The notes beneath the pieces are model-generated. The model was not told where the DNA came from. It was given only the letters and a program-made list of their open reading frames with translations, and did not search any database. A DNA stretch of 64,000 nt from Botryllus schlosseri (lineage: Eukaryota), in contig CM119373.1 of NCBI GenBank assembly GCA_051294905.1, positions 6,572,001 to 6,636,000 on the forward strand, in the 5' to 3' direction. Positions 4,288 through 51,841 of the stretch are shown here, in pieces. Positions within the stretch are counted from its first letter, which is position 1. Every line of letters starts with the position of its first letter. A program made the translations under genes and the position numbers.

Positions 4288-4346
4288 CTACAAGACCAGC
4301 TGCCGCGGCTGCTTAACCCGTTACATGGCACGATGTCTTCATCGTC

Positions 4347-4474
4347 GCACTTGCTCGACGCGATAAGGCAGTCACGCAGAGAACGAAACTTGGACACATT
4401 TCCTTCATAACATCGGCTGACAACTATCTAAATTTCGTTCTCTGCGTGACTGCCTAATCGCGTCGAGCAAGTGC
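4347..4474. repeat. Small foldback element (42-bp inverted repeat)
   Basis: 4347-4388 and 4433-4474 are reverse complements with one mismatch, around a 44-bp spacer. Confidence 0.85.
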
Positions 4475-4665
4475 GGCGGTCAGCAATCTGATGATAATGA
4501 GATAGTCACTGTGAATATTTCTATTGAAGCGGATACCATGAGAACTGTCGTCGAGGATTTTATAGCCGAAAATCAACACCTCAAATCCCTTCAACAATTC
4601 TCTATGACATATGATCAGCATATGCCCAACAGTTTGACCCCAATTCGTATTTTTCTAAATATGGA

Positions 4666-8400: not shown

Positions 8401-9560
8401 TTAAATACGATTTATTCCATGTATAATGTATATGTGAATAAATGGGCAAATAATGTATTATCGATTCAGCAATCCGGCCCGCCAAGTACTTGACTTTCCT
8501 ATATCCGGCCTGCCGACTGGAAAAGTTGCCCGCCGCTGGTCTACAGATATTTGTGTCATGCAATTTTGTATTGCTGCGGCGAAATCCGGCTGGACTTAAG
8601 CAGACTTGTTTGCGATCTTTTTCTTGATCAGCGTAAGCTCTTTTTCCTTCACACTTTTTCTTCGCGTATACAAAAATAAATAGCCTACATATTCATAAAA
8701 CATCAAAAATTCCAACCTACTCTTATTTCTGATGCAACAGGGTTGCCATTAGTCGTGATTCAGAGCATCGACTTATAGGTGCTTTGTCAGCTAGAACTTC
8801 GGTTTCTCATTTCCATATTACGCTTCTTTCTTTGCTCGACATTCTTACATTGTACGCACGCATTGCTGTGCGGATCGCGTAATATCGTCGTACACTTATC
8901 TGAAAGCCTGGCCGAGCAAGTCACGACTTTGTCGGCCTCATTCAAAATATCGAACACAGTGCTCTCCCGCAAGCTCGAGTTAGTAGACACGAACTCGCCA
9001 TCACCAAATTCGTATCTTACAGACAAGCCCTCCTGTACGTCTAAAACAATTCCATTTTTTTGGTTTCTGAATTGAAACGCTAAATAAATTCGCTTTAAAC
9101 CAGTCGGGTTGTTGTAGCTTCTAAAATCCTTTTTGCACGCCATCTAAACTTTTATATCTTGATGGCACTGGTAATTCATGTTTTACTATTGGCTTTCTCG
9201 GGGGAGGTGGAGTAGTGTCGTGCGATTTTTCTGGCAAATTAATTGACGGCAAGGCGCCTGGTTTTAACTCTTTTCTTGTGATTTACGTAATGGAAATCTG
9301 TTTCTGCGAAATGACGTCCACAAATGCCAGCTTGATCCCTTTTTCCTAATTCCGTTACGACCGACTTCTCTCGATATTTACAACAAAAATGAAACAATAA
9401 ATGAAACAATAAAGTATGCCATTCCTTGTTTCGTCCAGGGTGCAGAACTACAGTCAGGATGTAAATACCAGCCGATTCTTTGCTCGATTTGCCGAGTCTC
9501 CTAGTATTACACCCGGGTAATATGCAGTGACTAGGCGCCATGGTTATACGATATAATCCA
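5494..9560 (-). mobile_element. Degenerate P-element-like (THAP + P transposase) DNA transposon
   Basis: THAP-like 'MAPSHCILPGC...ICGRHF' (~9250-9545); 'SPAAYEEFRGVLRLPSKSTL' (~7080-7140); 'CITFDEMQI', 'CADGAANNRKF', 'WPDPPHLIK' (D-x2-H); 'RISQDCQERHFSMQRAIGG' (~5690-5750). Many frameshifts; interrupted by a hAT MITE. Confidence 0.8.
7310..8538. mobile_element. Non-autonomous hAT element inserted in the P-like transposase
   Basis: Imperfect TIRs tagagctgggcaac / gttgcccgccgctg. 8-bp TSD gtctacag at 7302-7309 and 8539-8546. Contains a degenerate nested cagtggttctcaa...ttgagaaccac element (~7973-8310). Confidence 0.85.
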
Positions 9561-10577
9561 AATATGGTACACTTGATTTGAACAAAATTTTCAACCCAAA
9601 CAGAGAACACAAAAGTTTCATAACCCAAACAGAGAACACAAGTGTCCAGCTAAAACCAACGGGCGCAGGCGAACCTGGTTCGATTCTCGCCATCAGCAAT
9701 GAAGATCGAAACACCGTAACGATTGACCATTTCAACCATAGCGTTTATAAAGGCTTATGGTTCCAACATCCCCCTCATCCCCCTATATTTTGATTGTATG
9801 GCATTGTACATTAAGTATCTAGAGCAGATGGACACGTAATTAATTAAATATATCAACTACCGTAATAGTCAGCTACGGTAGTACGGTAGTTATACCTTTA
9901 CAAGGCAGTATCATAATCAACTGAATATGACATGTATGTATACAAGTTTAGGCATCGTGTCCTATATAGTTCAAGTGTTTCCCATATCTTTAATCATTAT
10001 TTGAGAGCTTATTAATAGCTTTGCGTATTAAGAATCCTATCATGGGCTATGATCCTATCCTACATTAGGCCAAAATTAGGGAAGTTGAAACCGAAACCAA
10101 CTGTTGTCAAATGTCACAATGGCAATCTCGCAGGCGGAATTCAAGCGTGATGGTATCCACAACATGCATAACAATGCTTTCAAGTGCAACAGGCCTGCTT
10201 CAATAGAGGGTAACCGTTGTCACCCAATAGAATTCCTTCAATATTACCGTCTTCAGAATCGTCAGCCAGTCAGGAATTTCGGTATAACCTGAAGTCGTGG
10301 CACGATCCCGGCCAACGGTACAACAAGATTGGTTATTGTTCGTTCCGCACTGCAAACGACTTGAACATTCAAGGACATGAATCCTCTTCTTTTACGGAAC
10401 GACTATGAGTCCTCTTCTTTTACGGAACGACTCCGCGTTATCTCCACAGGGCAGATAATGCGGATGTGGGTGCCGTCACTATCTCCAACCACCCCGGGAA
10501 ATTTTTTAATTTTATAAAATTGCGATTTAATTTTCGCGGTGTCGTTCATGGATTGCAATAAACTGAGTTATGTTTTG

Positions 10578-11339: not shown

Positions 11340-12261
11340 TGCGTCCGGTGCGAAATTCCTCTTCATAACGCGTTTCTTTATCGACGACTTCACGAATATA
11401 TCTACCATCCGGCTCACCAATGTACATATCAGAACGGTCCATTACGCACTGATTCCTTTTATACTTTACGTCCCTACTTAGCGACACGCATTTTTTTGCG
11501 TTTCGAGCAAGTCTGCGTTTTCGTCTCCGTGACGTCCGCTCGGGCAAGTCTGGACCTGTCTAAACCTGCTCGACCCACTCTCGTTTTAAAATTCTCTCGT
11601 TTCGGTGGGTCAAAGTATATTAACATAAATAAACAAGAATTTTCATATTGGTGAATTCCCCTAAGCTACACCATGCGCTTCTACACTTGCTAATGTTTTA
11701 AACTCTACGGTTATCTCTCGTGATCTTGGTATATCTCGACAGTCATCGTTGTTTTTCCTGTCCAGTTCGGCCATGTTTGAGTACATATAGATAGCCCGCT
11801 GTAGTAGTTCTGACTCCTCCATTTTGGCCAGTCTTTTACATGCATCCAAGGGCTCCCTTCACTATCTTGAAGTAATTGATTTGCGTCTTCTGCGCTGTCC
11901 ACTACCGATATGCTCTTTTCTAGCTTCATCTCATGTTTTCGGGACGTTGATCCATAACCAAACGACTTTTTCGTCCCTCCTTCTTGTTCTAGTATGAACA
12001 GTTCTGGCTCTTCCGTTGCCCCAATATTGTCATTCGACGATACTACTTGTAGATACGTCTCAGTAACAGTGTCTTTCGTGCATCCCGTAAGTGGCGTAGA
12101 TTTGTCCTTATCTGTCCATTCGTTTAGCCACAACATTGGTGGCCCGTTATTTCCCGTAAATTCTCCATCCGTAGATGTTTCCGAATTCGTCATGTGACCT
12201 TCCTCATTGTATGTATATTTTGTGCTTGCTTTTTTCGGCCTCGGCACGAATGCGTACGGGT
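11340..12261 (-). mobile_element. Virus-like element copy A (divergent lineage), distal part: capsid-like C-terminus, intergenic block and start of the basic ORF
   Basis: Translation aligns to copy B with 150/174 identical residues by hand (PYAF...TMTV). A 2-nt frameshift lies near 11735. 'MDRSDMYIGEPDGRYIREVVDKETRYEEEF' matches the copy B ORF at 24503. Confidence 0.9.
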
Positions 12262-15200
12262 CAAGGCCCGAACTACTGCTATCTCCGGCTAAGCAAATTC
12301 GCGTGATTCCCATGCGCAGATGCATTGTGGGTAGGTACACGGTTAAGTGATTTACTACATGGGCTTATGGAAAAGCGGTCAGTTTTTAAATATATTTGAT
12401 TCGTATCGGGTCCGTAGTATTTTATGCGTATAGAGCTTTGAATGACTAATTATTCTAACACTCAGGATTTGTTTCAGCCTAATATCTCGTGTCAGTATAT
12501 TGATATTATGTGTAATTCGACCTGTCGAAGATAGCCCATTCATCAGGTGGTAGTGGTAGTCTTTGCTGTGTCGGGGTTGGTGCAGTAAATGGCCGAAGAA
12601 GATATCCAATGAGTCGTATGCAAGAAGTATTTGTGACGGCAGTTGTGATGAAGAGTCGATAGTAAAGCGTCGATACCCCAGAACTTTTTACCGGTAAGTG
12701 AATAACAGAATAAGCATAGCAGCAAGACATGTATGTCCAGATCTGCCACAGTTGTAATAAATAGGTCATGGTAAAGTGATAGCAGAACATTTCGTTGCCG
12801 CTAAATGAATGAAATGACCAGACCAGACTACCAGCAGAAATCCGTGTCAACATATCAGCTATGTAATGTTCATCATCAATATCTGTAATATTCTGTAATA
12901 ATGCCAATCTCACTCTTCGTATTTCGGCCAATAATCTGCTTAGTATTTAATTCTGGCTTATGCTATGTAGGCATGATGAGCAGGACTACAGGGAAAAGAT
13001 ACAATTCATGACCAATGGGTTTTCTTCAACATAGCTAAAAAAGGATATCTTTTTCAGATGATAAACAAATACTGTGGAATTTGCAAATTCCATCGTCGAG
13101 TTCATCTACAAATTCCATCGTCGAGTTCATCTACATAGTCCTCATAGTGTTGTTCGAAACTGTCAATTTATTTATTCAGACACATTTTTCAAGGTTTACC
13201 TTTGAACTGCTTTAGCTTTAGAAGGCTGCCTCAATCTTGAATACAATAGCCTATGGAGTGAAAAGTGACAGATAATTTTATCAGACAAGATATCACAGCT
13301 CATAACAAAGAATTGTATTTCGTGTGCTTTGCTTCATACAATGCTCCGTATAATGCAGCATTCCTACTAATGAATCGCTGAAAGGAAGATGGTTAGAAAA
13401 CATTAAAAGAAAAAACTGGGTTCCATCAAGATCGTCAGTCATCTACTCCGATCATTTTCCGGTAAGTGCCATTTACCGTGTGGGCCAGTTGATACGTTTC
13501 AGGGAGAATGCGGTGCCAACGAGATTTCTGAACTCTCCGAAATATACGAGGTCAAAGGTACAGTAGGCATCTATAAATTTACTTCTAAAGTTTGCCTTTG
13601 TTGATGTGAAATTCTTGAATTTTAGGCTTCCAACAAACGGCAAGCGAGACTAGCAACACTTCAAGATAAGAAACGTCATTGTAAAGCACAAACCGGTGAA
13701 GCAGTTGTCCATGACCACAGTTACTGTGCACGTACCTCTCCTCAAAAGCTCATTCAACAGCAACGCCGTAGAGTGGTACAAATTAAAAAGAGGTTGCATG
13801 CTGCCAAAATGCGGACAGGCCACCTGAGAAAAAAAGTGAAAACTCTATATGAGGTCATTGCATCTCTAAAAAAAAAATGATCAGCGATTTGTATGGAGAA
13901 GTAATGTCACAAAAATTCTGTCTTCTACCAAGTGAGCTGTTGCAGCGCATGAAGCTACAAGCTGGTGGAAGAGGAGTCAAATACTCTAAAGAACTGCAAT
14001 CATTTGCAATGACGCTGCAGTATTATTCTGCTGAACTGCAATCATTTCCAATGACGCTGCAGTATTATTCTGCTATTTTGTGCGTCAAAATTTTCAACTC
14101 GCTCTTCCCCATCCGAGTGTGATAAGAAGCTAGTATGGAAAACTTCCTGCTGAGCCTGGCTTTACTGGTATTGCATTTTCTGCTACAAGAGGAAAAGTAG
14201 AGGCATCAACAACTCCCGCAGTGGGGTGGCCTTCCACGTCACTGTGCCGCGACAAAAAAGGAGGTCTATTAAATTGCAAATGCGATCAGAATGGGTTAGT
14301 TTATTGTACCAAGATCTCAGATATTAAGCCCTAACTTATCCCACATTTTACTTTCAGTTCACCCGCAATTACGTCGAGGGCGACGTCAAGTCAATAACAA
14401 TTTAATTTATTTCTGTTTTTATTTTTTTATGTTGTTATTTTAATAGAAAAATCATTCAAACCTCGCGTTTCTCATTCAAACCTCGCGTTTCTCATAACTG
14501 AAGCTGGTGTTACTGAAAACGAAAGTTTTGGTACGAGACAGTACAGCGCGGTATTTCCTGTGATCCCAGAAATGGTTGATCGAAAGTCAGGTTGGAATGC
14601 TGCGTCTATTAGGGAAGGAAGGGATCAGGTAGGCAGCAACCGCGTGATCCCAGAAATGGTTCATCAGAAAACGCACTAGGTAGAAATGCTTCATCTAGCA
14701 GGCAAGGAAAGGATCATAGGCAGCCACTACGTGATGCCTGGCTGATCTGATATATTGACCTTGCTTTCCGTCGCATGCCATATTTTTTTGTCGCTTGATC
14801 TTATATGGTATCTTAGTTAGAACTATTAGTTTTCATCCAGCGTACCCTGTAAATGCCTCCTCTTTACTTTGCCTAGGCCCAGGTGGGTGTAGATTACCTC
14901 AGGCCGTTGCGTTACCTTGCTATCTTTTCATCGATGATTAATCTGATTAAGTCAATTTCAGTGAGCACTAGGCAATTCTACCCTGATCTGAATATGGACT
15001 CGTGCATTCATCTTGTAATTCTTGTTTCTCTCATTCGATGATATAAATATAATATTTCTATCATTTGATTACCTCTGCAGAAATCGCTAACCCATATTGC
15101 TACACATAACTCACATATCCTCACTTCAACTTTCTAGGATTTATTTGGACCAATTTGACACAATGAATAAGTAGAATAAAAATTAGATCGTATAAATTTG

Positions 15201-16011
15201 ATTGTAGTTGTGCTTTTGCGATGTCACATGATGCTGAATTTTCCTCCGTCAGTGGTATTCATAGCCACTACGTAGCTGGCAGCAATAGCATTGACATCAG
15301 CGCCATTGTAGTGAGAAGATTTCGAATCGAATCCAGGGCGATTCTGAGGCAGTCTCTGGTAGTAACTTGAAGCTGGTGGTCATAGCCATAGATGCTTTTA
15401 CTACCGTACCTATAGATACAGTGCCTGAAAGATAACAACAAAACTGACATGCAATGCAATCAGTTGATAGCTTGGTTAATTATTTACACTTGAAATGTGC
15501 CTGTTTGTTGTTTTCAAGATTTGTAATAGTAAATTGTTTGTTGTTTTTCAAGATTTGTAATAGTAAATTACAGTGTGTGCTTGTATCAACAATTCGAGGA
15601 CGCAGTACATGAAACTGAAGCTATAATGCGTAAGAAGACAACATCAGCAAGCTCCATTAGGATTAATGGCATCATATCTAAATCAAATTGCCATACACAG
15701 TAGCCTACCTGAAACTGAAGCTGTATAGGGATAAAGAAGACAACATCACCAAGCTCCCCGAGTTTAGCAATCTACATCAGGAAGATATTTGCAAATGAAT
15801 ACATACGGTGACACATATATAACCTTATCTTGTCCGAACCATCGAAATTAATACCTCCAGGCCAAGGAGTAATCAAAACAGTCACATCACCCATCCACTT
15901 TTGCCTTGACTACCAGCTTAACGCGCAGCTATCAACTTAACCCAAAGATGGCGGCCAATGGATCACGCAAATATCGCGAGTAGCGCACTCCAGTGTTTAT
16001 ATAGCTCAGTG
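12262..16011 (+). mobile_element. P-element-like insertion (THAP9-type remnant) splitting virus-like copy A
   Basis: 8-bp TSD gtacgggt at 12254-12261 and 16012-16019; the viral frame H-P-Y-A-F is restored on removal. CA...TG ends. THAP remnant 'WLENIKRKNWVPSRSSVIYSDHF...NAVPT', a DHSY motif, and 'YSKELQSFAMTLQYYS' at ~13300-14150. Confidence 0.85.
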
Positions 16012-16660
16012 GTACGGGTGCCTTAGTGTTGTCCGATAATCCTTTATCCTAAAGTAGCGGTACATTTTTAACGGATTGAATCCTCTTTCAGAGTCCCACG
16101 GCCAAACTCATTTTCTTTTTTTTGTTCTTGAACGCGCTCGACGTTGATCCCGTTTCGACTGGTAATGCGAAACATTCTTCACGGATACCACTTTCTCTGA
16201 AGTGACCGTCACCATATGTGTCCAGCTGTCCACCCACTCGTGATCGATCTGGTTAGGCGCCGTTGTGGTTCCCGTTTCTTTTTTCGTGCAAAACTTTGCG
16301 ACCTCATTGATTTTTATTCTGTACTCTGCTGTTTCCGTTCCCTTCCAGAGAAACCCTGCCACTGTATGAACTCCCGTGCCCCCAGCGCCGCCTCCGGAGC
16401 TCCGCACAGTTGGCTCGCTCCCAGCAAAGCCCCCCATCTTGCCAATCGTGCTGTCCGCCGCCATGGTGACCCTTTTTCCTTCGCTATCCGGTGTAATTCT
16501 TTTTGGCTCGGTCTCTCCGGTCTCTGGTGTAGCCCCTTGTTTAGTAGGCCTCCCGCGCTTTCGTTCGCCACTTGTTCCAGTTCTGGACTGTGAAACGCTA
16601 CTGTCGCTAGGAATATTCTCTCCTCGCCACTTGTTCCTGCTCCTTCAGTTGCTTCTTTTT
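16012..16660 (-). mobile_element. Virus-like element copy A, proximal part (Gly-rich start of the capsid-like domain and overprinted ORF)
   Basis: 'MAADSTIGKMGGFAGSEPTVRSSGGGAGGTGVHTVAGFLWKGTETAEYRIKINEV' is homologous to copy B 23229 onward. Frameshift from a short tggaca duplication near 16225. Upstream boundary approximate. Confidence 0.9.
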
Positions 16661-22029: not shown

Positions 22030-24290
22030 AAGGATGGAGATCGAGAGGGGCAAAATTAAGAGCGGAGGCGGAGGCAGCAAGAATAGAAAGAGAGAAAGGA
22101 TGGACACACGCATTCGCAACAGCGAGAAGGAGAGAATACGATGCAATACATACACCAGTGAGGGATCATCTTGGAATACCAGGAATGCAACATTTCCTGG
22201 AAGCATTGGGATTAATAGGCGAAACGAACATAGATAATGTAAAAGAAGCAACATACAAATGGGCAAAGTCAAAAATCGAAGAACTGAAAACAGCACTGGG
22301 AGAAGACACAATGGTGGGACAACTAGTGGACGAAATGTTTGTAGTGGATAGTACAGGACAGTCCGACTGGCATGACCTAGAAAATTACAGACAATCAATC
22401 ATGGACATAGTAAATCCAGAAAGATCAGCAGAAGAAAGAAACGAACTAAATCAAGAAGAGTTAGGAGAAGGAGTAACAGAAACGAATAAATATGGGACAG
22501 GAATAACAGAAGAGATCGAGAATGAAGAAGAATACATATACAGTGATGAATCAGATACAGAATTAGACCAAGAAGAGCTGGGAGCGGGAGTAACTGAAAA
22601 TGACCCAGAGGGAATAACAGATGAGATAGAAGAAAGAGAAATAGAAGAATTCGAAGAATACTGTGACATGAGATTATCGGAAGTGGAAAGTGAGAATAGA
22701 TATGCACAGCAGTGGGCGCAATACGAAACGGCAGTAGAGGAAGCATTCAACAGATTTCAACAAAGACGTCATGAACAAAGGGGAACACCAATAATGCAAT
22801 GGCAAATACCGGGCACGAGAAGGAGATGGGAAGGGTTAGGAAGAGCATTGAGAGTGGCGATACCTAGGAAACGTAATAGAAGGGGGTGGATAAAGGACAG
22901 ACCAGGGTATTGGATGAGAAAAGACGGGAAAATAGAAAAAAGAAAAAGGCGACTGCCTCTAGAATGTATAAATATCGCGAACGAGCGGAGAGCTGCCAAA
23001 AGAGCGAGAGATGCAGCAGGAGAAGGAGCAACAACAGAAGGAGAGCCAACAGAAAAAGCCGGAAGAGTTGAGAGCAGCGTACCTAGCGACACTGGTACTA
23101 CACAGCCCAGTACTGGAGGAAATAGCGAACGAAAGCGCGGGCGGGATTCTGAGTCAGAACGTGGGGAAGAGACCGGAGAGACTATCCCAAAAAGAGTTAC
23201 ACAAGAGAGCAAAGAAAGAAGGGTCGGAATGGAGGCGGACAGCTCGGCTAGCAAAATGGGGGTTGCTTTTGGGGGCGAGCCAAGTGTTAGGAGCTCCGGA
23301 GGTAGCGGAGGCGGCGCTGGTGGGAGCGGTGGCGCTGGGGGCACAGGAGTGCATACGGTGGCGGGATTCTTGTGGAAGGGAACAGAAACCGCCGAATATA
23401 GAATAAAGATAAATGAAGTGGTGAAATTTAAAACAAAAAAAGAAATAGGAACAACTGCAGCGGGAAATCAGATCGACCACACATGGGTGGACACGTATGG
23501 AGACGGACATTTTAGGGAGAGCGGAATAAGAAAAGAATGTTTCGCACTACCAGCAGAAACGGGAAGCACAGCAAGTGCGTTCAAAAATAAAAAGAGAAAA
23601 AGGGTTTGGCCATGGGATACCGCGAGGGGATTCAATCCACTGAAGATGTATAGGTACTTCAGGATAAAGGATTACCGAACAACATTAATGCATCCATATG
23701 CCTTCACACCAAGACCGAAAAAAATGACAACGTCATATGTATACAACGAAGAAGGGCATCTACAAAGCTCAGTGACCAATACAGACGGAGAATTTACAGG
23801 AAATAATGGGCCACCAATGATGTGGCTAAATGAATGGACGGATAAGGACAAGTCAACGCCATTGACAGGATGTACAAAGGACACTGTAATAGAAACATAC
23901 TTACCTGTAGAGAGTACAAACGACACAATTGCAGCGACAGAAGAACCAGAATTATTCATACTGGAGCAAGAAGGTGGAACAAAAAAAGCATTTGGATACG
24001 GGTCATGCTCTAGAAAACATGAAATGAAACTAGAGAAATCAATCTCGGTAGTGGACAGTTCAGAAGACGCAAATCAACTACTTCAGGACAGCGAAGGAAG
24101 CCCGTGGATGCATGTTACAGACTGGCCAAAGTGGAGAAGCCAAAACTATTACAGCGGACTAAGCGTGTGTACTCAAACATGGCCGAATTGGACAGGACTA
24201 TCAACCATGACGGTCGACATACCAAGATCGCGCGAAATAACTGTAGAGTTTAAAACTCTAGCTAGCGCGGAATCGCATGGTGTCGCATAA
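22030..24290 (+). CDS. Distal ~753 codons of the 905-aa large ORF; C-terminal 353 aa (from ATG 23229) is a probable single jelly-roll capsid domain
   Basis: Uninterrupted frame. Acidic tract, then Arg/Lys-rich tract and RKRGR, then a Gly-rich stretch, then a beta-rich region with 'MYRYFRIKDY' and terminal 'ITVEFK', reminiscent of ssDNA-virus capsid strands. Capsid identity is by resemblance only. Confidence 0.6.
23011..23406 (+). CDS. Overprinted 131-aa ORF in an alternative frame of the large ORF
   Basis: Homologous open frame in divergent copy A (16314-16571 and upstream) with a stop at the equivalent position (NIE* vs STE*). Identical in copy C (40957-41352). Confidence 0.65.
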   Translation: MQQEKEQQQKESQQKKPEELRAAYLATLVLHSPVLEEIANESAGGILSQNVGKRPERLSQKELHKRAKKEGSEWRRTARLAKWGLLLGASQVLGAPEVAEAALVGAVALGAQECIRWRDSCGREQKPPNIE

Positions 24291-24332
24291 GGGGAATTCC
24301 CTAATTGTATATATTTATTGCATTGTTACGTT

Positions 24333-24338
24333 AATAAA
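24333..24338 (+). promoter_or_regulatory. Candidate polyadenylation signal of the large ORF
   Basis: AATAAA 43 nt after the stop codon. Not retained in copy A. Confidence 0.45.
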
Positions 24339-24392
24339 GGTTGACCCACTCAGACGAGAAAGTTTTTTTCCTTGGGTGGGCCAGGGCAGGTT

Positions 24393-24449
24393 CAGACTTG
24401 CCCGAGCGGACGTCACAGAGACGAAAACGCGGACTTACTCGAAACGCAA
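24393..24449 (+). promoter_or_regulatory. Conserved non-coding cis-element of the virus-like unit
   Basis: 54/57 nt identical to copy A 11496-11552 (reverse complement). Contains GACGTCA and two GACTT(G/A)C(C/T)CGA repeats. A TATA-like tataataa follows at ~24482. Confidence 0.75.
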
Positions 24450-24502
24450 TTTTATAGTGTCGTTTAAGTAAGGATGCAGACTATAATAAGGCTCATTTGG
24501 AT

Positions 24503-24841
24503 ATGGACGGGTCTGACTTGTATATTGGCGAACCCTGTGGAAGAATTATAAGAGAGATTGTGGATTACGAAAGTAGATATGAAGAGGAATTTAGCTGCCG
24601 ACGAGAGTTCGAATGCATCAAGGACGAGCGTGCCTCAAAGTTACTCAAGCGATTCAAAGAGATTGCGAATAGACGAAGAAGAGAGGTCCGTGAAGGGGGC
24701 AGGAGATGGAGAAAATTCAGAGCGTGGCACGATCGCTACCTTCGGGCGACCCTGACGCGGCCCTATCGGGCCGCAAGGGTCAGGGGTCGCAACGCTCTCT
24801 TAGCCTATTTTGGCTTCGATCGCGTTACTAGCACACCCTAG
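24503..24841 (+). CDS. ~112-aa basic protein of the virus-like unit
   Basis: The first ~30 residues and the start Met are conserved in copy A. Arg-rich C-terminal half. Function unknown. Confidence 0.65.
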   Translation: MDGSDLYIGEPCGRIIREIVDYESRYEEEFSCRREFECIKDERASKLLKRFKEIANRRRREVREGGRRWRKFRAWHDRYLRATLTRPYRAARVRGRNALLAYFGFDRVTSTP

Positions 24842-24916
24842 GGTAAGAAGGTGTCCTTACCCTAGGGTGTGCTAGTTGACCCACCCAAAAAAAAACATTC
24901 CGAGCTGGGTGGGTCA
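24746..24916. repeat. Cluster of three stem-loops (candidate origin or fused termini)
   Basis: GC-rich bulged hairpin 24746-24790; perfect 21-bp stem 24827-24847/24856-24876 with 8-nt loop; 11-bp stem 24877-24887/24906-24916. Confidence 0.9.
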
Positions 24917-24923
24917 GGAAGGA

Positions 24924-24931
24924 TATAAATA
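24924..24931 (+). promoter_or_regulatory. TATA box candidate
   Basis: TATAAATA immediately after the hairpin cluster, 28 nt upstream of ATG 24959 (A at -3). Confidence 0.6.
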
Positions 24932-24958
24932 GAGGCTGAGTGGCGAAAGTGATTCAAA

Positions 24959-25201
24959 ATGAGCACGTACGAGGAGCTGAGCGGATTGGTGAAAGACTGG
25001 AAGCACACGGAACAACTGAAGTGGAGCTATCTAATCAAAGAAGTACTGAACCTGATATTGTTGATAGCGATTGTGGGACTGCTAAGTATAGTTCACTACA
25101 ACGTGACAAGAATTCAAGGAGCGGAAAGACTGAGAAGATTCGCAGACGTAACAGGAGGGCCACCAAGATACGAAGAAACGACAACAACTTTTGAAGCATA
25201 A
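24959..25201 (+). CDS. 80-aa predicted single-pass membrane protein with PPxY motif
   Basis: Hydrophobic 'VLNLILLIAIVGLLSIV' and C-terminal 'PPRY'. Its stop overlaps the next ATG (TAATG, 25199-25203). Present only in copy B. Confidence 0.6.
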   Translation: MSTYEELSGLVKDWKHTEQLKWSYLIKEVLNLILLIAIVGLLSIVHYNVTRIQGAERLRRFADVTGGPPRYEETTTTFEA

Positions 25202-25669
25202 TGACAAAGGCGTTAGCTGTATTGAACAATGTACGGAAGAATGTGAAGAAAATAAATAAACTGAGATCTGCATATACGGAAAATCCAATCTCAAAAGCAG
25301 CAAGAGGGTACCAGAAATTGAAAAAGATAGAGAATGGGGTGGCAAATATTAAAAAAACATACAAAAATCCAATACGAAGAATATACGCAAAATGGGAAAG
25401 AGTGACAGCGAAATTAAATGAGTGGGAACAGGGATACAAAGGAGTGCAAATGGGCATAAGCATTTTCCAATCAGCAACAGGGGCGTTAGTGGAAGATATA
25501 AACAACGGGATTGATTATCCAAGAGCTGTGACAGCAGTGATACAAAGAAGTCTGGAAAATTGGGACAGAGATAAATTAGAAGAAGGATTAAGGATATTAA
25601 AAGTACCAAGAGGAGAAATTGGGAGAATAGGAACGCACTTGCAGAACAACGTGTTCCAAGGATGGAGAT
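25201..25669 (+). CDS. N-terminal ~156 codons of the 905-aa large ORF (continues at 22042 in the circular form)
   Basis: Ends ...NNVFQGWR, and copy C shows ...NNVFQGWRSRGAK contiguous. The ORF-track tail beyond 25669 is flank read-through. Confidence 0.8.
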
Positions 25670-39701: not shown

Positions 39702-42700
39702 GTAGCGATCGTGCCACGCTCTGAATTTTCTCCATCTCCTGCCCCCTTCACGGACCTCTCTTCTTCGTCTATTCGCAATCTATTCCAATCAGCAACAGGG
39801 GCGTTAGTGGAAGATATAAACAACGGGATTGATTATCCAAGAGCTGTGACAGCAGTGATACAAAGAAGTCTGGAAAATTGGGACAGAGATAAATTAGAAG
39901 AAGGATTAAGGATATTAAAAGTACCAAGAGGAGAAATTGGGAGAATAGGAACGCACTTGCAGAACAACGTGTTCCAAGGATGGAGATCGAGAGGGGCAAA
40001 ATTAAGAGCGGAGGCGGAGGCAGCAAGAATAGAAAGAGAGAAAGGATGGACACACGCATTCGCAACAGCGAGAAGGAGAGAATACGATGCAATACATACA
40101 CCAGTGAGGGATCATCTTGGAATACCAGGAATGCAACATTTCCTGGAAGCATTGGGATTAATAGGCGAAACGAACATAGATAATGTAAAAGAAGCAACAT
40201 ACAAATGGGCAAAGTCAAAAATCGAAGAACTGAAAACAGCACTGGGAGAAGACACAATGGTGGGACAACTAGTGGACGAAATGTTTGTAGTGGATAGTAC
40301 AGGACAGTCCGACTGGCATGACCTAGAAAATTACAGACAATCAATCATGGACATAGTAAATCCAGAAAGATCAGCAGAAGAAAGAAACGAACTAAATCAA
40401 GAAGAGTTAGGAGAAGGAGTAACAGAAACGAATAAATATGGGACAGGAATAACAGAAGAGATCGAGAATGAAGAAGAATACATATACAGTGATGAATCAG
40501 ATACAGAATTAGACCAAGAAGAGCTGGGAGCGGGAGTAACTGAAAATGACCCAGAGGGAATAACAGATGAGATAGAAGAAAGAGAAATAGAAGAATTCGA
40601 AGAATACTGTGACATGAGATTATCGGAAGTGGAAAGTGAGAATAGATATGCACAGCAGTGGGCGCAATACGAAACGGCAGTAGAGGAAGCATTCAACAGA
40701 TTTCAACAAAGACGTCATGAACAAAGGGGAACACCAATAATGCAATGGCAAATACCGGGCACGAGAAGGAGATGGGAAGGGTTAGGAAGAGCATTGAGAG
40801 TGGCGATACCTAGGAAACGTAATAGAAGGGGGTGGATAAAGGACAGACCAGGGTATTGGATGAGAAAAGACGGGAAAATAGAAAAAAGAAAAAGGCGACT
40901 GCCTCTAGAATGTATAAATATCGCGAACGAGCGGAGAGCTGCCAAAAGAGCGAGAGATGCAGCAGGAGAAGGAGCAACAACAGAAGGAGAGCCAACAGAA
41001 AAAGCCGGAAGAGTTGAGAGCAGCGTACCTAGCGACACTGGTACTACACAGCCCAGTACTGGAGGAAATAGCGAACGAAAGCGCGGGCGGGATTCTGAGT
41101 CAGAACGTGGGGAAGAGACCGGAGAGACTATCCCAAAAAGAGTTACACAAGAGAGCAAAGAAAGAAGGGTCGGAATGGAGGCGGACAGCTCGGCTAGCAA
41201 AATGGGGGTTGCTTTTGGGGGCGAGCCAAGTGTTAGGAGCTCCGGAGGTAGCGGAGGCGGCGCTGGTGGGAGCGGTGGCGCTGGGGGCACAGGAGTGCAT
41301 ACGGTGGCGGGATTCTTGTGGAAGGGAACAGAAACCGCCGAATATAGAATAAAGATAAATGAAGTGGTGAAATTTAAAACAAAAAAAGAAATAGGAACAA
41401 CTGCAGCGGGAAATCAGATCGACCACACATGGGTGGACACGTATGGAGACGGACATTTTAGGGAGAGCGGAATAAGAAAAGAATGTTTCGCACTACCAGC
41501 AGAAACGGGAAGCACAGCAAGTGCGTTCAAAAATAAAAAGAGAAAAAGGGTTTGGCCATGGGATACCGCGAGGGGATTCAATCCACTGAAGATGTATAGG
41601 TACTTCAGGATAAAGGATTACCGAACAACATTAAGGCATCCATATGCCTTCACACCAAGACCGAAAAAAATGACAACGTCATATGTATACAACGAAGAAG
41701 GGCATCTACAAAGCTCAGTGACCAATACAGACGGAGAATTTACAGGAAATAATGGGCCACCAATGATGTGGCTAAATGAATGGAAGGATAAGGACAAGTC
41801 AACGCCATTGACAGGATGTACAAAGGACACTGTAATAGAAACATACTTACCTGTAGAGAGTACAAACGACACAATTGCAGCGACAGAAGAACCAGAATTA
41901 TTCATACTGGAGCAAGAAGGTGGAACAAAAAAAGCATTTGGATACGGGTCATGCTCTAGAAAACATGAAATGAAACTAGAGAAATCAATCTCGGTAGTGG
42001 ACAGTTCAGAAGACGCAAATCAACTACTTCAGGACAGCGAAGGAAGCCCGTGGATGCATGTTACAGACTGGCCAAAGTGGAGAAGCCAAAACTATTACAG
42101 CGGACTAAGCGTGTGTACTCAAACATGGCCGAATTGGACAGGACTATCAACCATGACGGTCGACATACCAAGATCGCGCGAAATAACTGTAGAGTTTAAA
42201 ACTCTAGCTAGCGCGGAATCGCATGGTGTCGCATAAGGGGAATTCCCTAATTGTATATATTTATTGCATTGTTACGTTAATAAAGGTTGACCCACTCAGA
42301 CGAGAAAGTTTTTTTCCTTGGGTGGGCCAGGGCAGGTTCAGACTTGCCCGAGCGGACGTCACAGAGACGAAAACGCGGACTTACTCGAAACGCAATTTTA
42401 TAGTGTCGTTTAAGTAAGGATGCAGACTATAATAAGGCTCATTTGGATATGGACGGGTCTGACTTGTATATTGGCGAACCCTGTGGAAGAATTATAAGAG
42501 AGATTGTGGATTACGAAAGTAGATATGAAGAGGAATTTAGCTGCCGACGAGAGTTCGAATGCATCAAGGACGAGCGTGCCTCAAAGTTACTCAAGCGATT
42601 CAAAGAGATTGCGAATAGACGAAGAAGAGAGGTCCGTGAAGGGGGCAGGAGATGGAGAAAATTCAGAGCGTGGCACGATCGCTACCTTCGGGCGACCCTG

Positions 42701-42750
42701 ACGCGGCCCTATCGGGCCGCAAGGGTCAGGGGTCGCAACGCTCTCTTAGC
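39702..42750 (+). mobile_element. Virus-like element copy C: 2,968 nt of the circle plus an 80-bp inverted fragment
   Basis: 39783-39975 = copy B 25465-25657; 39976-42750 = copy B 22030-24804; 39702-39781 = reverse complement of 42606-42685. Confidence 0.92.
39783..42236 (+). CDS. Large ORF of copy C, N-terminally truncated, capsid-like domain intact
   Basis: Uninterrupted frame across the permutation junction. Differs from copy B at two residues visible in the ORF track (M/R, T/K). Confidence 0.75.
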   Translation, partial: FQSATGALVEDINNGIDYPRAVTAVIQRSLENWDRDKLEEGLRILKVPRGEIGRIGTHLQNNVFQGWRSRGAKLRAEAEAARIEREKGWTHAFATARRREYDAIHTPVRDHLGIPGMQHFLEALGLIGETNIDNVKEATYKWAKSKIEELKTALGEDTMVGQLVDEMFVVDSTGQSDWHDLENYRQSIMDIVNPERSAEERNELNQEELGEGVTETNKYGTGITEEIENEEEYIYSDESDTELDQEELGAGVTENDPEGITDEIEEREIEEFEEYCDMRLSEVESENRYAQQWAQYETAVEEAFNRFQQRRHEQRGTPIMQWQIPGTRRRWEGLGRALRVAIPRKRNRRGWIKDRPGYWMRKDGKIEKRKRRLPLECINIANERRAAKRARDAAGEGATTEGEPTEKAGRVESSVPSDTGTTQPSTGGNSERKRGRDSESERGEETGETIPKRVTQESKERRVGMEADSSASKMGVAFGGEPSVRSSGGSGGGAGGSGGAGGTGVHTVAGFLWKGTETAEYRIKINEVVKFKTKKEIGTTAAGNQIDHTWVDTYGDGHFRESGIRKECFALPAETGSTASAFKNKKRKRVWPWDTARGFNPLKMYRYFRIKDYRTTLRHPYAFTPRPKKMTTSYVYNEEGHLQSSVTNTDGEFTGNNGPPMMWLNEWKDKDKSTPLTGCTKDTVIETYLPVESTNDTIAATEEPELFILEQEGGTKKAFGYGSCSRKHEMKLEKSISVVDSSEDANQLLQDSEGSPWMHVTDWPKWRSQNYYSGLSVCTQTWPNWTGLSTMTVDIPRSREITVEFKTLASAESHGVA

Positions 42751-44209: not shown

Positions 44210-44680
44210 TGTTGTGAGCATTTTACTGTAGTTCTATTGAAATTACTTTTAGTAACATGTCCACCGAGATTTTGCCTCGTCACTGCAGATATAAAGATGG
44301 TGCGGTGCGATAGTCTATATAGAAAGCTACAACTGTAATACTTTGATGGTTTCTATCAATTCTGTTTATGCATATTGCATGTGGAAAATACCCGGATAGT
44401 GAGAAATATTGCAATATGAATTCAGGAAACGGATATCTACGAAGTGGAGAAATATGATGAATATTTACTACAGTAAATTGAAGGTAGCGTCGAAGTGAGG
44501 AGACGGTGCAGTGACCCGGATTTTCGACGATAAAATACATAGCCTTTTGTTACAGAGACCACAAAGCAAAGTAAACGATTGTTATATGATTAGCAGTAAG
44601 CCTTTTGTAATCTTATCTGCAGTGATATGTGATTTGCTTCCATTTTTCATGATCATTGAACTGTTTTTATGCTGTCATAG

Positions 44681-45673
44681 CAGTGTTGGGATCAAGTCAC
44701 TACCTTCGAGTCATCTCGAGTCATTGCAGATTATGACTCGAGTCAAGTCAAGTCAATCAATTTTCAAAGGTGACTCGAGTCAAGTCGAGTCAAGTCAAGT
44801 CAAGTCACGAGTCAAGTCACAATTCAAGTCAAATTGAATTTTCGAAGTATGAGCGATGATTCAAAGTCATTACATTTTGCTAGCTGTGTGAAAGACAGAT
44901 TAGTTGATCACTTATCTCGAATAAAATAGCGAATATCTAGTTAAATATACATGCAAAAAGACGTGGTATCCCTCACACATATGCCGAACTGCTAATAAAA
45001 TACGTGAGTAACTGTACAGTGTACACTGTACTGTACACTGTACTGTACAGCTGCATGCTACAGTTGCATGCTACAGTCAGTTATTATCAGTCAAAATATA
45101 GGACCTAATGCGAAGCTTCGAGAACTTGAAACAAATAGATGTGACAAAATAGCCCACACTACCCATCTACACATCCGTGAGAATATAAACGCAAAACTAT
45201 ATTTGTTCGATTTAAATCATACAAAAGGATTGATCTGAGCACTGCGCAACCTAAGCATTGAGCCGTCTAAGAAACAGAGACACATTGCTATTTAGATTAA
45301 TCTTCTACTACTGCTACGACAACTTTGCTGTGATTGTTTAGTTTGCGGCTGATTTATTTGTGATCTAACAATCGAGGTTCAGTGTATCGTACAATCAGTG
45401 AATGACTGGTTGCTCTCACAAGTGATACCGGTGTATCTCGAACAATCCGAACATACACAAGATACAGTGATTTATTCGACACCGTTTACTTGATGACTTG
45501 AAATTGACTCGTGAATTCTGCTCCGAGTCACGAGTCAATGCACATTTTTGAAGCTCCGAGTCAAGTCAAGTCAAGTCATTTTTCCAAAGTGACTCGAGTC
45601 AAGTCAAGTCATACGAAAAAGTTGACTCGAGTCTGACTCGAGTCAAGTCATGACTCGAGTCATCCCAACACTG
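44681..45673. mobile_element. hAT-type MITE with gagtc/aagtc subterminal arrays
   Basis: TIRs cagtgttggga / tcccaacactg. 8-bp TSD tgtcatag at 44673-44680 and 45674-45681. A second partial copy starts at 62993. Confidence 0.92.
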
Positions 45674-46524: not shown

Positions 46525-48754
46525 CCACGTCATATATTTCCTGAATTGAAACCTTTTCTGGACTGATCTGCAATTCTCTATCATATTTTGCTTTTTGGGT
46601 TATCCGAATTTTCAATGAATGTGCACAATTAAGCAATAATTCTTTTCAATTTCAGTTTTCTCGTTTCTTTGTCACCTTTCTGTGGCATGAACAAGTTCCA
46701 TCTTGCCTAATATATATTATTTTTGGTGAAATTGTTCTCTGCTCCTCACATATTAATATTAGTGTCCCTGTGAGTGTGCCGATATATCGGTCGACCTCTA
46801 CTACAATTACGCTCCGTGTATTTTCGAACTCATCGTCCTCCACCAGCTCTACCGCTAACTCTGATCATGTGGGCGGAGAGTTGATCATGTGGGCGGAGAT
46901 TAGTATCTATATAGTAATATATGGGACAACCAATATCATTGACAGAATTCATTCAGATAATATAAACACCAGATTCATACAGTAACGAGTTTCATATAAC
47001 AAGCACCCCCCTCCCCAGAAGTTGCATCGATTACCCTTTAGTGTGTGCTCAAAATCATTTTTTATTTAAGGGGAAGGGGCTGAACACGTTTGCTTTCATT
47101 CCCGGTTACCCAAAACACAGCGAAATACTACTAAACCGGATCGTGACCACCTCAGGTCTATAAGCAAGGCTTTGCTAGTGTGACGTGATAACCAAGTTTG
47201 AAATCAACGAGTGGACGGTAAAGAGTGTCCGGAATTCGTGTTGCTGAAACATGGTAACCCTAATCTAGAAAAACTTGCGAAAATGACAATACATCTAACG
47301 ACAGAATACTCTAGCACTTCCATACACTCTACCAACTGGGACCCACCATCAAGAGATGGAATGACTCAATATTCACGAACAGCAAGCCACACCGTACATT
47401 CCTATCGACACGATGGACAAGAAACGTTAAAGCCGCAGAAAAGCTAAAATGGGACCTGGAAGATTGGCAAAACACACAATTAAAAGACATATACAACAGA
47501 ATCAAAAGATTACACGAAAACATGGGCTACCAGGAGCGCAATGAAATAAACTAGAGCTCAATCCAAATGAAGAATAAGCAAATAGGTAATCTGATCAAAA
47601 AATAAAGAAAGAGTTATACCATACCGCATCGCTAGATACGGGTTCCTATTCGGTTGGGAAAGAGTACAAAAAACAAACTGGGGCATCGAACAAGACCACC
47701 TGCCATAACAACATGCCGACAATGCGGATGCAAAAGGAAGCCCTGAGCCACATCCTATACATATTAGAGATGTACAGGATCAGGATTTAAGATTCTAACA
47801 GGTCAGGAATCCGGGTGATTTTTTGGCAACAGGATTGGATCCGGATTCCAAATTTTACTGTTTTGCCGGATCCGGATTAGGACAGGATTTTTATTTTGAC
47901 GAAAACATGATCAGAATCTTGTCGAACATGCTTTGATTCAGAAAAGGTAGAACTTATCTTCTCGGAGTTTATAAATTATATTTCTTACAAAGAGAATTCT
48001 GATAATATATATTTTCCGCGTAGGAAATTTCAGCGGCAGAAACGTCTTGAGCTGCTCTTTCGTCAGATCTTGATGTTGGTTGATAATATCATTTCGGGTT
48101 CTTGTCTAATTCAGAATGTCAGAGGTTTTAGAATTGATAGCTCAAAATGACATTATTAAGGCTGACGAAAACACCGTCACAAGGACTAAAAGTGATGCTT
48201 GGAGACAGTTCTATACTTGGTAGGCAAGCGAGATGGGAAATATGCTGGCTGTGGTTTGTGCTTGCTGCCAGTATCATGTCAAAGTTCAACTGATGAGCTC
48301 GAAGACTATATTAAGAGTACTTTGAGTGACTCAGATATTGGAGATGGCATCAGCTTAGATGAATCGTCTTGAAGAATCCCAATACAATTGCTAGGTATCG
48401 AAATCTCAGTATACTTGCTGTTGGTAAAATGAATATTAGTATTCCTGCATCAAGTGCATCCATCAGGGTAAGGGGGGTTCAGTTTATGTTGAAATACTAA
48501 TGAGAAAAAAAGAACCTTGCTTACAGCTTAGATGCTTTAGTTGTACCGTAGTTAAAAGTTCTGGTGACTATGTTTCGTGTCATCATTTCATTTTTTCTGT
48601 CAGTCTGTATCTTAACGATGACCATGTTGCAGTTGTTGAATGCAATTTCAGTTATCAACTATCTATTTGCAGTATGTAAACTACTATTATTTTGTAGAGA
48701 CTCTTTGGGGTACAGAACTTTAATATACATTTTAATAATATATTCATATTAAAA

Positions 48755-48787
48755 CCCGAAGCTTTTCGAACTGACACTTTTCAAGGG
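48755..48787 (-). ncRNA. Minimal type I hammerhead ribozyme (C3U/G8A variant), element-sense copy
   Basis: ccc-UUGAAAA-GUGUCAGUUC-GAAA-AGCU-UC-ggg on the minus strand. Confidence 0.65.
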
Positions 48788-50236
48788 CAATCGTCAGCAA
48801 ATGGAGAATTTCAAAAACATGCATCTAGCTACATTGCATACAACCAATTATGACGTCATAGAAACAAACAACATGAAATACAGGCAAACCGCGAGCGCAG
48901 CTAGTGGACAATTTTTTTATTTTTTATTTTTTTTTATTTATTTATCGGAGATCAGTTACGGCTGCGTCTTCGCGAGATTCCAATATGCGTGATCTAATAA
49001 CGCTGGGGACATGTTGCTTGATGCGTTCCTGCAAGCGCTGAGTTGTTCTTCCCACGTACCGACAATCACAGTGGCACTTGAAATCATAGAATATATTGCT
49101 TTGTTTAAAAGCAGGAACCAATTATGACGTCATAGAAACAAACAACATGAAATACAGGCAAACCGCGAGCGTAGCTAGTGGACAATGTTTTTTATTTTTT
49201 ATTTTTTTATTTATTTATCGGAGATCAGTTACGGCTGCGTCTTCGCGAGAGTCCAATATGCGTGATCTAATAACGCTGGGGACATGTTGCTTGATGCGTT
49301 CCTGCAAGCGCTGAGTTGTTGTTCCCACGTACCGACAATCACAGTGGCACTTGAAATCATAGACTATATTGCTTTGTTGAAAAGCAGGAAGAACATCTTT
49401 GCGCGTTGCAGGAAGCAATTGTTTGGTGGTAAACACAACATTAGTTTTTACGTTATCGTAACAGCGATTTACAGCAGAAATCAATTGCTTTTCAAACCGG
49501 GAAGAGATGGGGCCCAGCCACGGCAAATGTATATATACATTTTCCCCAGACCGTGTGTTCGTGTTTTGTGATTTGTTGGGATTGAAATTACTGATTTTTC
49601 TGTCCACAGAACTCTTGATGATGTGTTCGGGGTAGCCGTTACCGATTAGAATTTTGCGGATATATTCTAGCTCCGCGTTTAATTTTATATCCGAACAAAT
49701 CATCAAGGCTCTGTGCACCAATGTGCCAATCAAATTTAGTTTACGGCGATTCGGGCTAAAAGAATTCCACCGTATGTAATGCCCTGTAAACGTTGGCTTC
49801 CGGTAAACCGAAGTGACAAAACTAATACCCCGTTTTTCCACCAGAACGTCTAAGAATGGTAACGAGTTAGCACGCTCTTTTTCAAATGTGAATTTTAAAG
49901 ACGAGTGTAGAGAATTCAAGTTAACAAAAAAATCATCGAACTCCGTCTCATTTTGACAGATAACGAAGGTGTCGTCGACATAGCGACGGTACATGAATGG
50001 AGGCTTGGTTTCATCTGCGGCGAAAAGTCTGTTTTCATGGAATCCCACAAATATATTGGCTAAAATCGGGCCAAGAGGGCTACCCATAGCTACACCGTCG
50101 GTTTGCATGGAGATGTCCACTAGCTGCGCTCGCGGTTTGCCTGTATTTCATGTTGTTTGTTTCTATGACGTCATAATTGGTTGTATGCAATGTAGCTAGA
50201 TGCATGTTTTTGAAATTCTCCATTTGCTGACGATTG

Positions 50237-50269
50237 CCCTTGAAAAGTGTCAGCTCGAAAAGCTTCGGG
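50237..50269 (+). ncRNA. Minimal type I hammerhead ribozyme (C3U/G8A variant), inverted pseudo-LTR copy
   Basis: ccc-UUGAAAA-GUGUCAGCUC-GAAA-AGCU-UC-ggg. Palindromic helix III; upstream gctgac is complementary to gtcagc in loop II. Confidence 0.7.
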
Positions 50270-51841
50270 TTTTAATATGAATATATTATTAAAATGTATA
50301 TTATTTTGTACGTTCATCCTGGCTTCAGTTTCTGTTGATGTTTATATTTTTCCAGAAATCGCATATCACACGGTAATATAATATTTGCCGCTACTCATAT
50401 AGTAATATGGATCATGAAGCAATTTTTGAAAACAGGATTATTTTTGAACTCGGATAATGAAATATGCGATTGCAACAGGATCAGGATTGGATCAGGATTA
50501 TGATATCATGAAACAGGATTGGATCAGGATCCTAAAAAACCATGATCCGTACATCTCTAATACATATGCCCAATTGCCAGCCAGATAGATACTCAAGAGG
50601 CTAGAAAAAAAACCGAAAGCAAGTAAGGGCTAGAAAAAATCCGAAAGCAAGTAACAGATACCAACATACGACTAGCTGAGGAACTCCTTCCCTTCAATAT
50701 GAGAATTGCCACACAATTCCTTGTAACCCTATGCAAAGGGAAGGCAACACCCAACCGAATTGGTCTCGATATAGACAACGAAACGGAGAAAGATTCAGAT
50801 GAATACGCGACAAAAACATACAAAAGCAGCATTTCAACGACAAGAACAAGGCTGAACGAACCCCTGCCAATGGTCCTCGAGCGACTTAGGGCCCTGCTGA
50901 GAGACCTCCGACACCCAGGCTGCAACACAATCGCACAAAGACTTTTCGTATCTACAACGCGCAAGAACTGTCCAAAATGGACAAGGCAACAAAAGATACA
51001 CCTTACAAGCGACGTGTGGTGTTACCACGTGCGACTGTTGAAGGCTTTGAAGATTGGACGACACGTTGCCTCCAGGAAAATTGTATACCTGACCCAAAGT
51101 CGGAAGCGTTTGTCCGAAGAACTTGGGTATTGATGAAAAGCAAATATAGAGCTGGTTTTGCCGGAAAAGCTCGAAAATAAGAAAAAATAAAACAGCCCAT
51201 TGAAGGACAGAAAACACGGGAAACGGCAGTATTGCAACTGGCCCGCCAACGGAACCTACGATAAACAGTAGTGATTCGACCCGTACGGCATCGCAATCAT
51301 CAGACATGAGTTCATGCTTAGTCATTCCTAGAAATTCAGACATGTACTTACAGAGCTTTGGTGATTATATCAAAAGGCGACTGAGTTGGCTACGGAATAT
51401 ATGTGTCCACTCACCCTGGAAAGTCCTCTCTTTGAAGATATGACAACGACAAGAATGAATCACTTCAAAAAGGGATTGGACATTATGCAGAAGGCTTACC
51501 ATGAATGTGTACAGTGGGATATTGAGATGATAGATGAAAACAACGACGCAACAACAGCTTTGCCGGAACAATCAAGCACAGGCTCCTTGGCAGGGCCGCC
51601 TGCAAGCGCAGTACAATCGTAGGCCTACGATATTCACGGCCTTGTCTGGTTTCTGTACAGATATTCGCGATTACTCAATACGTAACAATTGACTATTGTT
51701 TTGATTGGACGATTACCGTCGACGTGACAATCGGCGATTGTCTTGATTTCGTTTCTGACACCAGACTCCTCGCATTTTGAAGCCCATAGGAAAGACCGCT
51801 ATCGCAACTCTCATTGATACCCAAAACACTAGAAGTGTGCC

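Follow-up and report, generated by a model that had tools for sequence, protein, structure and literature searches.

A conserved non-coding block as a putative control element of an endogenous ssDNA-virus-like family

Results

Virus-like inserts in a transposon-rich region

The stretch of DNA analysed here (the window, 64,000 nt) is of an animal-type genome and is rich in transposon remnants, including LINE endonuclease and reverse transcriptase (RT) pieces, DDE transposases, THAP and a P-element domain. Three related virus-like inserts, B1, B2 and copy A, were found in it:

22030..25669, plus strand: copy B1, a single 3,628-nt unit, permuted, whose two ends repeat the same 12 nt
39702..42750, plus strand: copy B2, 99.9% identical to B1 at 39783-42750; spans the unit junction and carries the conserved block at 42339-42395
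39702-39790, opposite orientation: inverted 89-nt piece in B2, equal to the small-ORF stretch 24651-24739
11341..12283, minus strand: copy A part 1, with the capsid 3' end, a motif pair (11574-11612), the block (11496-11552) and small-ORF codons 1-34
16012..16617, minus strand: copy A part 2, a broken capsid fragment

Copy A is about 75% identical to the B copies, lies on the minus strand and is broken, its two parts being split by about 3.7 kb of other DNA. This intervening DNA (12284-16011) carries a P-element transposase-like HTH remnant at 13853-14119, and a THAP remnant is located at 9242-9649. Copy B1 is flanked by a LINE remnant on one side and by another repeat on the other; its ends (22030 and 25668) lie at the 5' region of the LINE remnant and at a high-copy repeat.

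The region was compared with contigs of four of the 24 listed public runs, among them X1, X5, X6 and the RNA run X15. Run X1 is possibly the source of the window. Its depth is 19-21 over the parts common to B1 and B2 versus 8-12 over the parts found only in B1, which suggests that B1 and B2 are both real and each present once. That they go back to one event rather than two is suggested by an unbroken 2418-nt X1 contig. The two copies differ at two sites, 23689 and 23839; one unbroken X1 contig covers both, with the B2 letter at 23689, and assembly errors may account for the differences. In the X5 individual both flanks of B1 run into other sequence, and the B1 insertion may therefore be absent there.

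Organisation and coding content of the unit

All long ORFs of the 3,628-nt unit are encoded on one strand: a large gene, a 112-aa ORF (the small ORF) and an 80-aa ORF.

25201..25669, plus strand: large capsid-type gene, 5' part, cut at the right end of B1; matches P0007 residues 56-163 (E 4e-14)
22030..24290, plus strand: large gene, 3' part; a single jelly-roll domain at the C-terminus follows acidic, basic and glycine-rich regions
24503..24841, plus strand: 112-aa ORF of no assigned family, under protein-level constraint in comparison with copy A (24/34 aa identical)
24959..25201, plus strand: 80-aa ORF with a hydrophobic segment and no family

P0007, an independent 851-aa relative, aligns with the two parts of the large gene, arranged as in B2 (42% identity), and a diverged X6 contig has the same part order as B2 and P0007. 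This shared gene order indicates that the source was a circle or a head-to-tail array. The unit appears to be circular with a length of 3,628 nt; a head-to-tail concatemer would give an identical picture. The best explanation for the inserts is an endogenised small circular ssDNA-virus-like family that would have entered this animal's genome several times. Other contigs diverge from the unit after codon 75 of the 112-aa ORF (24727). The stop of the 80-aa ORF overlaps the start of the large gene, and this ORF is kept in diverged X1 and X6 contigs.

The C-terminal 320 residues of the large gene are ssDNA-virus-capsid-like by the language-model features of the Atlas, which rank parvo-type capsid clusters first (0.94, low recognition); structure comparison ranks circoviruses first. 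In that comparison a modest model of the domain (pLDDT 55.8, built from 9 sequences) matched a circovirus capsid best (Z 9.1, rmsd 5.0, 178 aligned), followed by another circovirus (Z 8.7); the predicted fold matched an anellovirus at Z 7.6 (rmsd 4.8, 168 aligned). A single-sequence fold prediction was discarded (pLDDT 30). The modelled capsid is thus predicted to be a circovirus-like single jelly roll. The basic stretch is in the middle of the protein, preceded by about 400 residues and followed by about 100.

Rep, HUH and Walker A motifs were absent from the 3,628-nt unit, and a PLA2 motif was not found on it. No Rep or NS family was seen in the 86 of 120 other long frames of the window that were scanned, the rest being in elements or LINEs or covered by a Pfam-type domain scan. 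The family has few relatives: six of 1.84 billion representatives matched by sequence, and Pfam families gave no match for the unit's proteins. Word-indexed protein searches returned nothing for the capsid domain, for P0007 or for a longer form of the 112-aa ORF (the last being weak evidence); Atlas had no usable match for the 112-aa ORF, and PDB sequence searches yielded glycine-linker noise or nothing. Protein-guided locus searches found no relative; one further locus (E 5e-4, 34 residues, on a 281-kb contig) was set aside. No description of this family was found in a literature search that ran outside supplements, whose virus lists could hold it.

A 57-nt block under constraint at the nucleotide level

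Between the large gene and the small ORF, in the main non-coding region of the unit, lies a short block with the following features, of which the repeats and GACGTCA were read from the sequence:

24393..24449, plus strand: conserved block of copy B1, 54/57 against copy A, with repeats and GACGTCA inside
24395 and 24432, plus strand: the block's GACTTRCYCGA repeats, 37 nt apart
24422 and 24440, plus strand: the block's CGAAA(A)CGC repeats
24409-24415, plus strand: GACGTCA (CRE-like) in the block

A sequence-only reading of this DNA had claimed 54/57 identity with three transitions between the B and A copies of the block, and alignment bore this out: B1 (24393-24449, plus strand) and copy A (11496-11552, minus strand) differ by transitions at 24417, 24431 and 24437, one of which falls inside the second 11-nt repeat. 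The third copy of the block, in B2 (42339-42395), is identical to that of B1 and is not independent. Letter by letter the alignment covers two lineages, A and B; other lineages were compared as mapped ranges and 30-letter loose ends. The block is the top 57-column window in the 900-column A/B alignment, and the best window in the capsid gene reaches 52/57. Over the capsid gene as a whole 445 of 581 positions are identical (77%), with 102 of 192 third positions and 31 of 64 four-fold sites; the small ORF agrees at 66 of 93 nt.

The same reading's claim of many synonymous changes in neighbouring codons also held, as 66 of 144 same-residue capsid codons were changed silently, whereas the block has no more than 2 such changes in 18 codons (P 0.002). 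Of the third positions, 17/19, 18/19 or 19/19 are identical in the block, depending on the frame, and 102/192 are in the capsid gene; the difference has P 9e-4 to 6e-6. Third positions and silent sites are therefore far more conserved than those of the capsid gene, which argues for constraint on the DNA letters and not on a protein. A short coding exon or overlapping frame would agree with the fact that all three plus-strand frames are open over the 57 nt in copies A and B, and with the capsid frame, in which two of the three changes are silent. The rate of silent change, far below that of the capsid gene, speaks against it, as does the capsid frame itself, which has no ATG before the block and has stops on both flanks. 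In the next frame two of the three changes alter residues, and upstream ATGs differ between A and B. We consider a coding role very improbable.

The constraint is overwhelming when set against neutral non-coding drift and modest when set against coding-like columns. Of 20,000 simulations with coding-like columns, 1.5% contained a 54/57 window within 900 columns (scan-wide P 0.015), and the chance of such a block at the four-fold-site rate (31/64) is about 1e-11, allowing for about 212 windows. That the block is just a lucky unchanged run without function might be argued from the post hoc choice of the window and from the 52/57 reached within the capsid gene; given the chance at the four-fold-site rate, and with other lineages keeping the block as well, this explanation is largely refuted and hardly credible.

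All six exact matches to GACTT(G/A)C(C/T)CGA in the window fall in the three element copies, in agreement with the two repeats first proposed. GACGTCA is present where it had been noted, but its standing as a CRE-like site is weakened by 24 matches in the window. Many of these are the full TGACGTCA palindrome in repeats; GACGTCA or TGACGTCA may be a favoured host factor site. The block itself has three matches in the window, all in the elements, and is thus not a common host repeat within this stretch. It showed no fold signal (z 0.25 and 0.32) and matched no Rfam family; the three Rfam matches at E up to 1 were all on the 21-bp hairpin described below and far below gathering scores.

Motif pairs, boxes and hairpin around the block

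The order of the region is capsid stop, AT-rich stretch with a poly(A)-like signal, TGACCCAC/GTGGG pair, block, TAAGTARGGA-TATAA and small ORF. A second motif pair precedes the 80-aa ORF.

24291..24340, plus strand: AT-rich stretch after the capsid stop, 30% GC (24% in copy A)
24333-24338, plus strand: AATAAA (AATATA in copy A)
24342..24382, plus strand: first TGACCCAC...GTGGG motif pair, its arms kept in A and B
24465..24486, plus strand: TAAGTARGGA then TATAA, which begins 17 nt after the first base of TAAGTARGGA
24827..24876, no strand assigned: perfect 21-bp hairpin with an 8-nt loop and a 10-bp palindrome in each arm
24877..24916, no strand assigned: second motif pair, a perfect 11-bp inverted repeat
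24924..24931, plus strand: TATAAATA box; the ATG of the 80-aa ORF follows at 35 nt, an ordinary spacing

The first pair had been described as an upstream motif with GTGGG present in both lineages, and TGACCCAC-N-GTGGG indeed has five matches in the window, all in the elements, versus 0.01 expected. The length of its spacer (26 nt) is constant in A and B, while the spacer letters have diverged. The arms can form five (B) or seven (A) Watson-Crick pairs. A hairpin role was unsupported (z -1.7 and -1.1), with 12 and 30 of 200 shuffles equally good. This pattern would be better explained by a pair of half-sites bound by protein on double-stranded DNA than by a hairpin.

The hairpin that the same motif was said to form at 24877-24916 is confirmed as a perfect inverted repeat. 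Its left arm also occurs in a diverged X1 contig, which drops the adjacent arm of the 21-bp hairpin. The proposal that each of two TATA-like boxes is preceded by the motif stands as to order; the two settings are not equivalent, the second pair ending 8 nt before the box at 24924 and the first about 100 nt before the one at 24482. A TATA box generally lies about 25-30 nt from the start site. The 17-nt spacing between TAAGTARGGA and TATAA is constant in A, B and a third lineage, and a conserved ATG follows TATAA (24482) at 21 nt in A and B alike. With the ATG so close, and with three RNA reads that cross from upstream, the TATAA is doubtful as a box that fixes the start, and the earlier identification of a TATA box at about 24482 is weakened.

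The CRESS nonanucleotide TANTATTAC is absent from both strands of the unit, including the 21-bp hairpin, and the TATTAC matches on the unit are all within the capsid gene. B2 ends at the equivalent of 24804 and the candidate partner record described below breaks at 24727; rearrangements thus cluster just upstream of the 21-bp hairpin.

Diverged lineages and a candidate partner unit

Record 22 of run X6 maps to 24387-24555 with 27 differences and keeps the block. An X5 lineage in which the capsid gene at 24227 is joined to 24404 also keeps it. In three lineages the block and the capsid gene lie on one continuous sequence.

Record 15 of X5 (2163 nt, depth 165) matches 24421-24727 over 307 nt with one difference. 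A joint of the same depth, with a short side of 58 letters, returns the sequence from 24727 to 24323, and about 1.8 kb of other sequence lies between the break at 24727 and the return. If the record ends at the joint, it is a candidate partner unit of about 2.2 kb, its cargo unread, and the stretch that it has in common with the capsid unit is 24323-24727, including 75 codons of the small ORF. The block had been put forward as a probe for a partner segment, and the public contigs did give this candidate. The corresponding joint is weak in X1 (depth 3.6, 30 letters), and the match of X6 record 23 also ends at 24727. Of 27 bins inside the unit, 9 have no depth at all in X5, and the capsid-gene pieces listed for this run are diverged; the region apparently occurs in X5 without a B-type capsid gene, though holes in contig depth prove nothing.

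Since X5 record 15 is as deep as the single-locus flanks (158-161), its depth is explained equally well by an integrated or tandem copy and by a free circle. The 1.8 kb could be host or transposon DNA. By bin arithmetic a 29-nt hairpin piece (24829-24857) is at record-15 depth in X5, and X6 has 471 nt after 24727 without this piece; the two continuations past 24727 may differ. The X5 loose end at 24829 shows half of the 21-bp hairpin beside 89 other letters; its 30 letters read forward keep the small-ORF frame open to the same stop, and in reverse they contain an AATAAA/TATA-like word. The P0007 contig, at 5,347 nt, comes close to the summed length of the two units less their common part (about 5.4 kb) and may hold both in unsplit form.

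The near-identity of the 307 nt, which include 75 codons, looks like recent exchange, and recombination of common regions is described for begomoviruses in the excerpted text of PMC10880892. The likeness of the block between A and B could in the same way stem from recent recombination or homogenisation between co-infecting lineages and not from selection. We regard this as improbable: the block is kept in at least three lineages, and the DNA beside it shows motif-by-motif conservation with diverged spacers and a 9-nt indel, unlike a single swapped tract. Repeated swapping of just this tract would itself indicate function.

Searches of viral sequences with short patterns, which had been suggested as a route to relatives, did not lead to any. 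Patterns of the block had no match in viral contigs and none in metagenome contigs. The pair TGACCCACC-N15-30-GGTGGGTCA occurred at seven viral loci, none with a tblastn or blastn match to the element; these were treated as chance.

RNA reads at the region

No RNA data set was listed as containing the stretch itself. The RNA run X15 contains eight reads from the region in 12.9 million records. They are in both orientations, all less than 90% alike, most of them at 24482-24555, and have the same loose end as X6 record 22. Three of them pass upstream, unspliced in the displayed 30 letters, through TATAA and the donor-like site. These reads are weak evidence, and DNA carry-over is possible.

The block might act as RNA, as a 5' leader or first exon, with AA|GTA(A/G)GG at 24468 as an alternative splice donor to the downstream genes. 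The donor-like TAAGTARGG is kept in three lineages, and the three reads, from a diverged lineage, extend a median of 59 letters upstream of 24482 and would reach the 3' half of the block. In anelloviruses the most conserved domain is at the start site and there is an intron in the non-coding region, as far as the excerpts of PMC12772153 describe it. The lack of a fold signal in the block counts against an RNA role, and so do the unspliced reads across the donor-like site, the small number of reads in both orientations and the absence of a conserved pyrimidine tract before the block in copy A. Such a role is unlikely.

Discussion

Comparison with known systems

The control region would, by analogy, work most like the non-coding region of anelloviruses (CD1, HCD and the 92-bp origin). 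In the excerpts of PMC12772153 that region has a 92-bp origin right after the poly(A) signal and a conserved domain upstream of TATA that is required for promoter activity, and replication is started by a small non-HUH protein. Anelloviridae, which are listed from mammals and birds, resemble the unit in being circular, in the 1.7-3.9-kb range, without Rep, with genes on one strand and with a circovirus-like jelly roll (PMC13034878). A small ORF after a conserved non-coding region and an AT-rich stretch after the poly(A) signal are further likenesses. However, the ORF2 motif W-x7-H-x3-C-x-C-x5-H has no match in six frames of the unit, and the arginine-rich N-terminus that directly precedes the jelly roll in anelloviruses, according to the accessible part of PMC10266747, is here a basic stretch in mid-protein. 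The missing ORF2 motif and the different capsid N-terminus indicate that the unit is not an anellovirus. A second expression unit with the 80-aa hydrophobic ORF and the lack of any sequence match to anelloviruses also set it apart, as does its host, the described anellovirus hosts being mammals and birds. Anelloviruses are non-segmented with negative-sense virion ssDNA, whereas here there is a candidate second unit.

Gyrovirus promoters carry ACGTCA (PMC6950609, in part), and in the sections available of PMC6950609 and PMC12944903 the gyrovirus promoter-enhancer has direct repeats with ATF/CREB and GGTCA-like sites. The likeness lies in short motifs only: both place repeated short sites, ACGTCA and GGTCA-like half sites among them, ahead of the genes. 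It differs in detail: the block has two imperfect 11-nt repeats and one ACGTCA, and the GGGTC half sites form a widely spaced inverted pair.

Bipartite begomoviruses and nanovirids, in the portions available of PMC10880892, also have a non-coding region common to differently loaded units, with iterated repeats and a stem-loop. A candidate for such a multipartite-CRESS common region is 24323-24727, which is also present on the 2163-nt X5 record with its unread cargo. Unlike in those viruses, the hairpin carries no nonanucleotide, no Rep was seen on the unit or in the other frames scanned, 75 codons belong to the common stretch and the host is an animal.

The segmented densovirus of Acheta domesticus is the nearest animal precedent that we found, but it is linear (PMC10267136, in extract). 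In this animal ssDNA virus the capsid genes and the replication genes are carried by different segments of near 3.3 kb that have cis-elements in common (same extract). Its segments are linear with common terminal hairpins, according to this extract, whereas the unit described here is permuted and circle-like and the common part is internal. The modelled fold is also nearer to circoviruses (Z 9.1 vs 5.6). As to other features of Parvoviridae, the 21-bp hairpin is internal in B1 and could represent joined ends, and the unit has no Walker A motif of an NS1, which could be on the unread partner.

Proposed function of the block

From these sequence comparisons we judge the block to be a genuine control element that is under constraint and belongs to an endogenous ssDNA-virus-like family not described before. 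It would form the core of the cis-acting control region of a small circular ssDNA-virus-like family, with proteins binding the repeated short sites in the double-stranded form. The small ORF would most likely owe its promoter and start site to host transcription factors, and both expression units would make use of the TGACCC(A)C pair. The region from the capsid stop to the small ORF would end one message, start the next and probably carry the origin. We think it rather probable that the block is a promoter or start-site core; it would probably double as a shared origin region. A region common to differently loaded units probably also holds a replication origin used in trans, as in bipartite begomoviruses. 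The factor acting in trans may as likely be one or more host factors as a viral initiator.

In a bolder reading, an invertebrate ssDNA virus would have two circular components, a 3.6-kb capsid circle and a partner circle of about 2.2 kb, and the block would be their common region. The circles would share promoter, origin and small-gene start, with no nonanucleotide origin. We hold this reading tentatively, at less than an even chance.

Control regions that stay conserved are nothing unusual among small DNA viruses. The family marked by this one, however, has next to no relatives in the databases, and the region connects a capsid unit lacking Rep with a second unit. Should the partner prove to be a real segment, it would belong to a rare segmented circular DNA virus of an animal and would be a test case for the replication of Rep-less circles, a question only lately opened for anelloviruses. 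The two-circle reading, if true, would describe an animal counterpart of the bipartite plant viruses or an invertebrate parallel to the Rep-less anelloviruses. The 57-mer is a working probe for collecting lineages and partner units.

Other elements of the window

At 48721-50303 there is an ORF with RT and GIY-YIG-like parts (49215-50108, minus strand), with 190-bp near-perfect flanking inverted repeats and a 273-bp tandem duplication; we take this element to be Penelope-like. A repeat family with tandem GAGTCAA units at its ends has two copies in the window (44680-45611 and 62992-63251). Finally, a 52-bp inverted repeat at 4343-4478 has arms that are 92% complementary and lie 32 nt apart.
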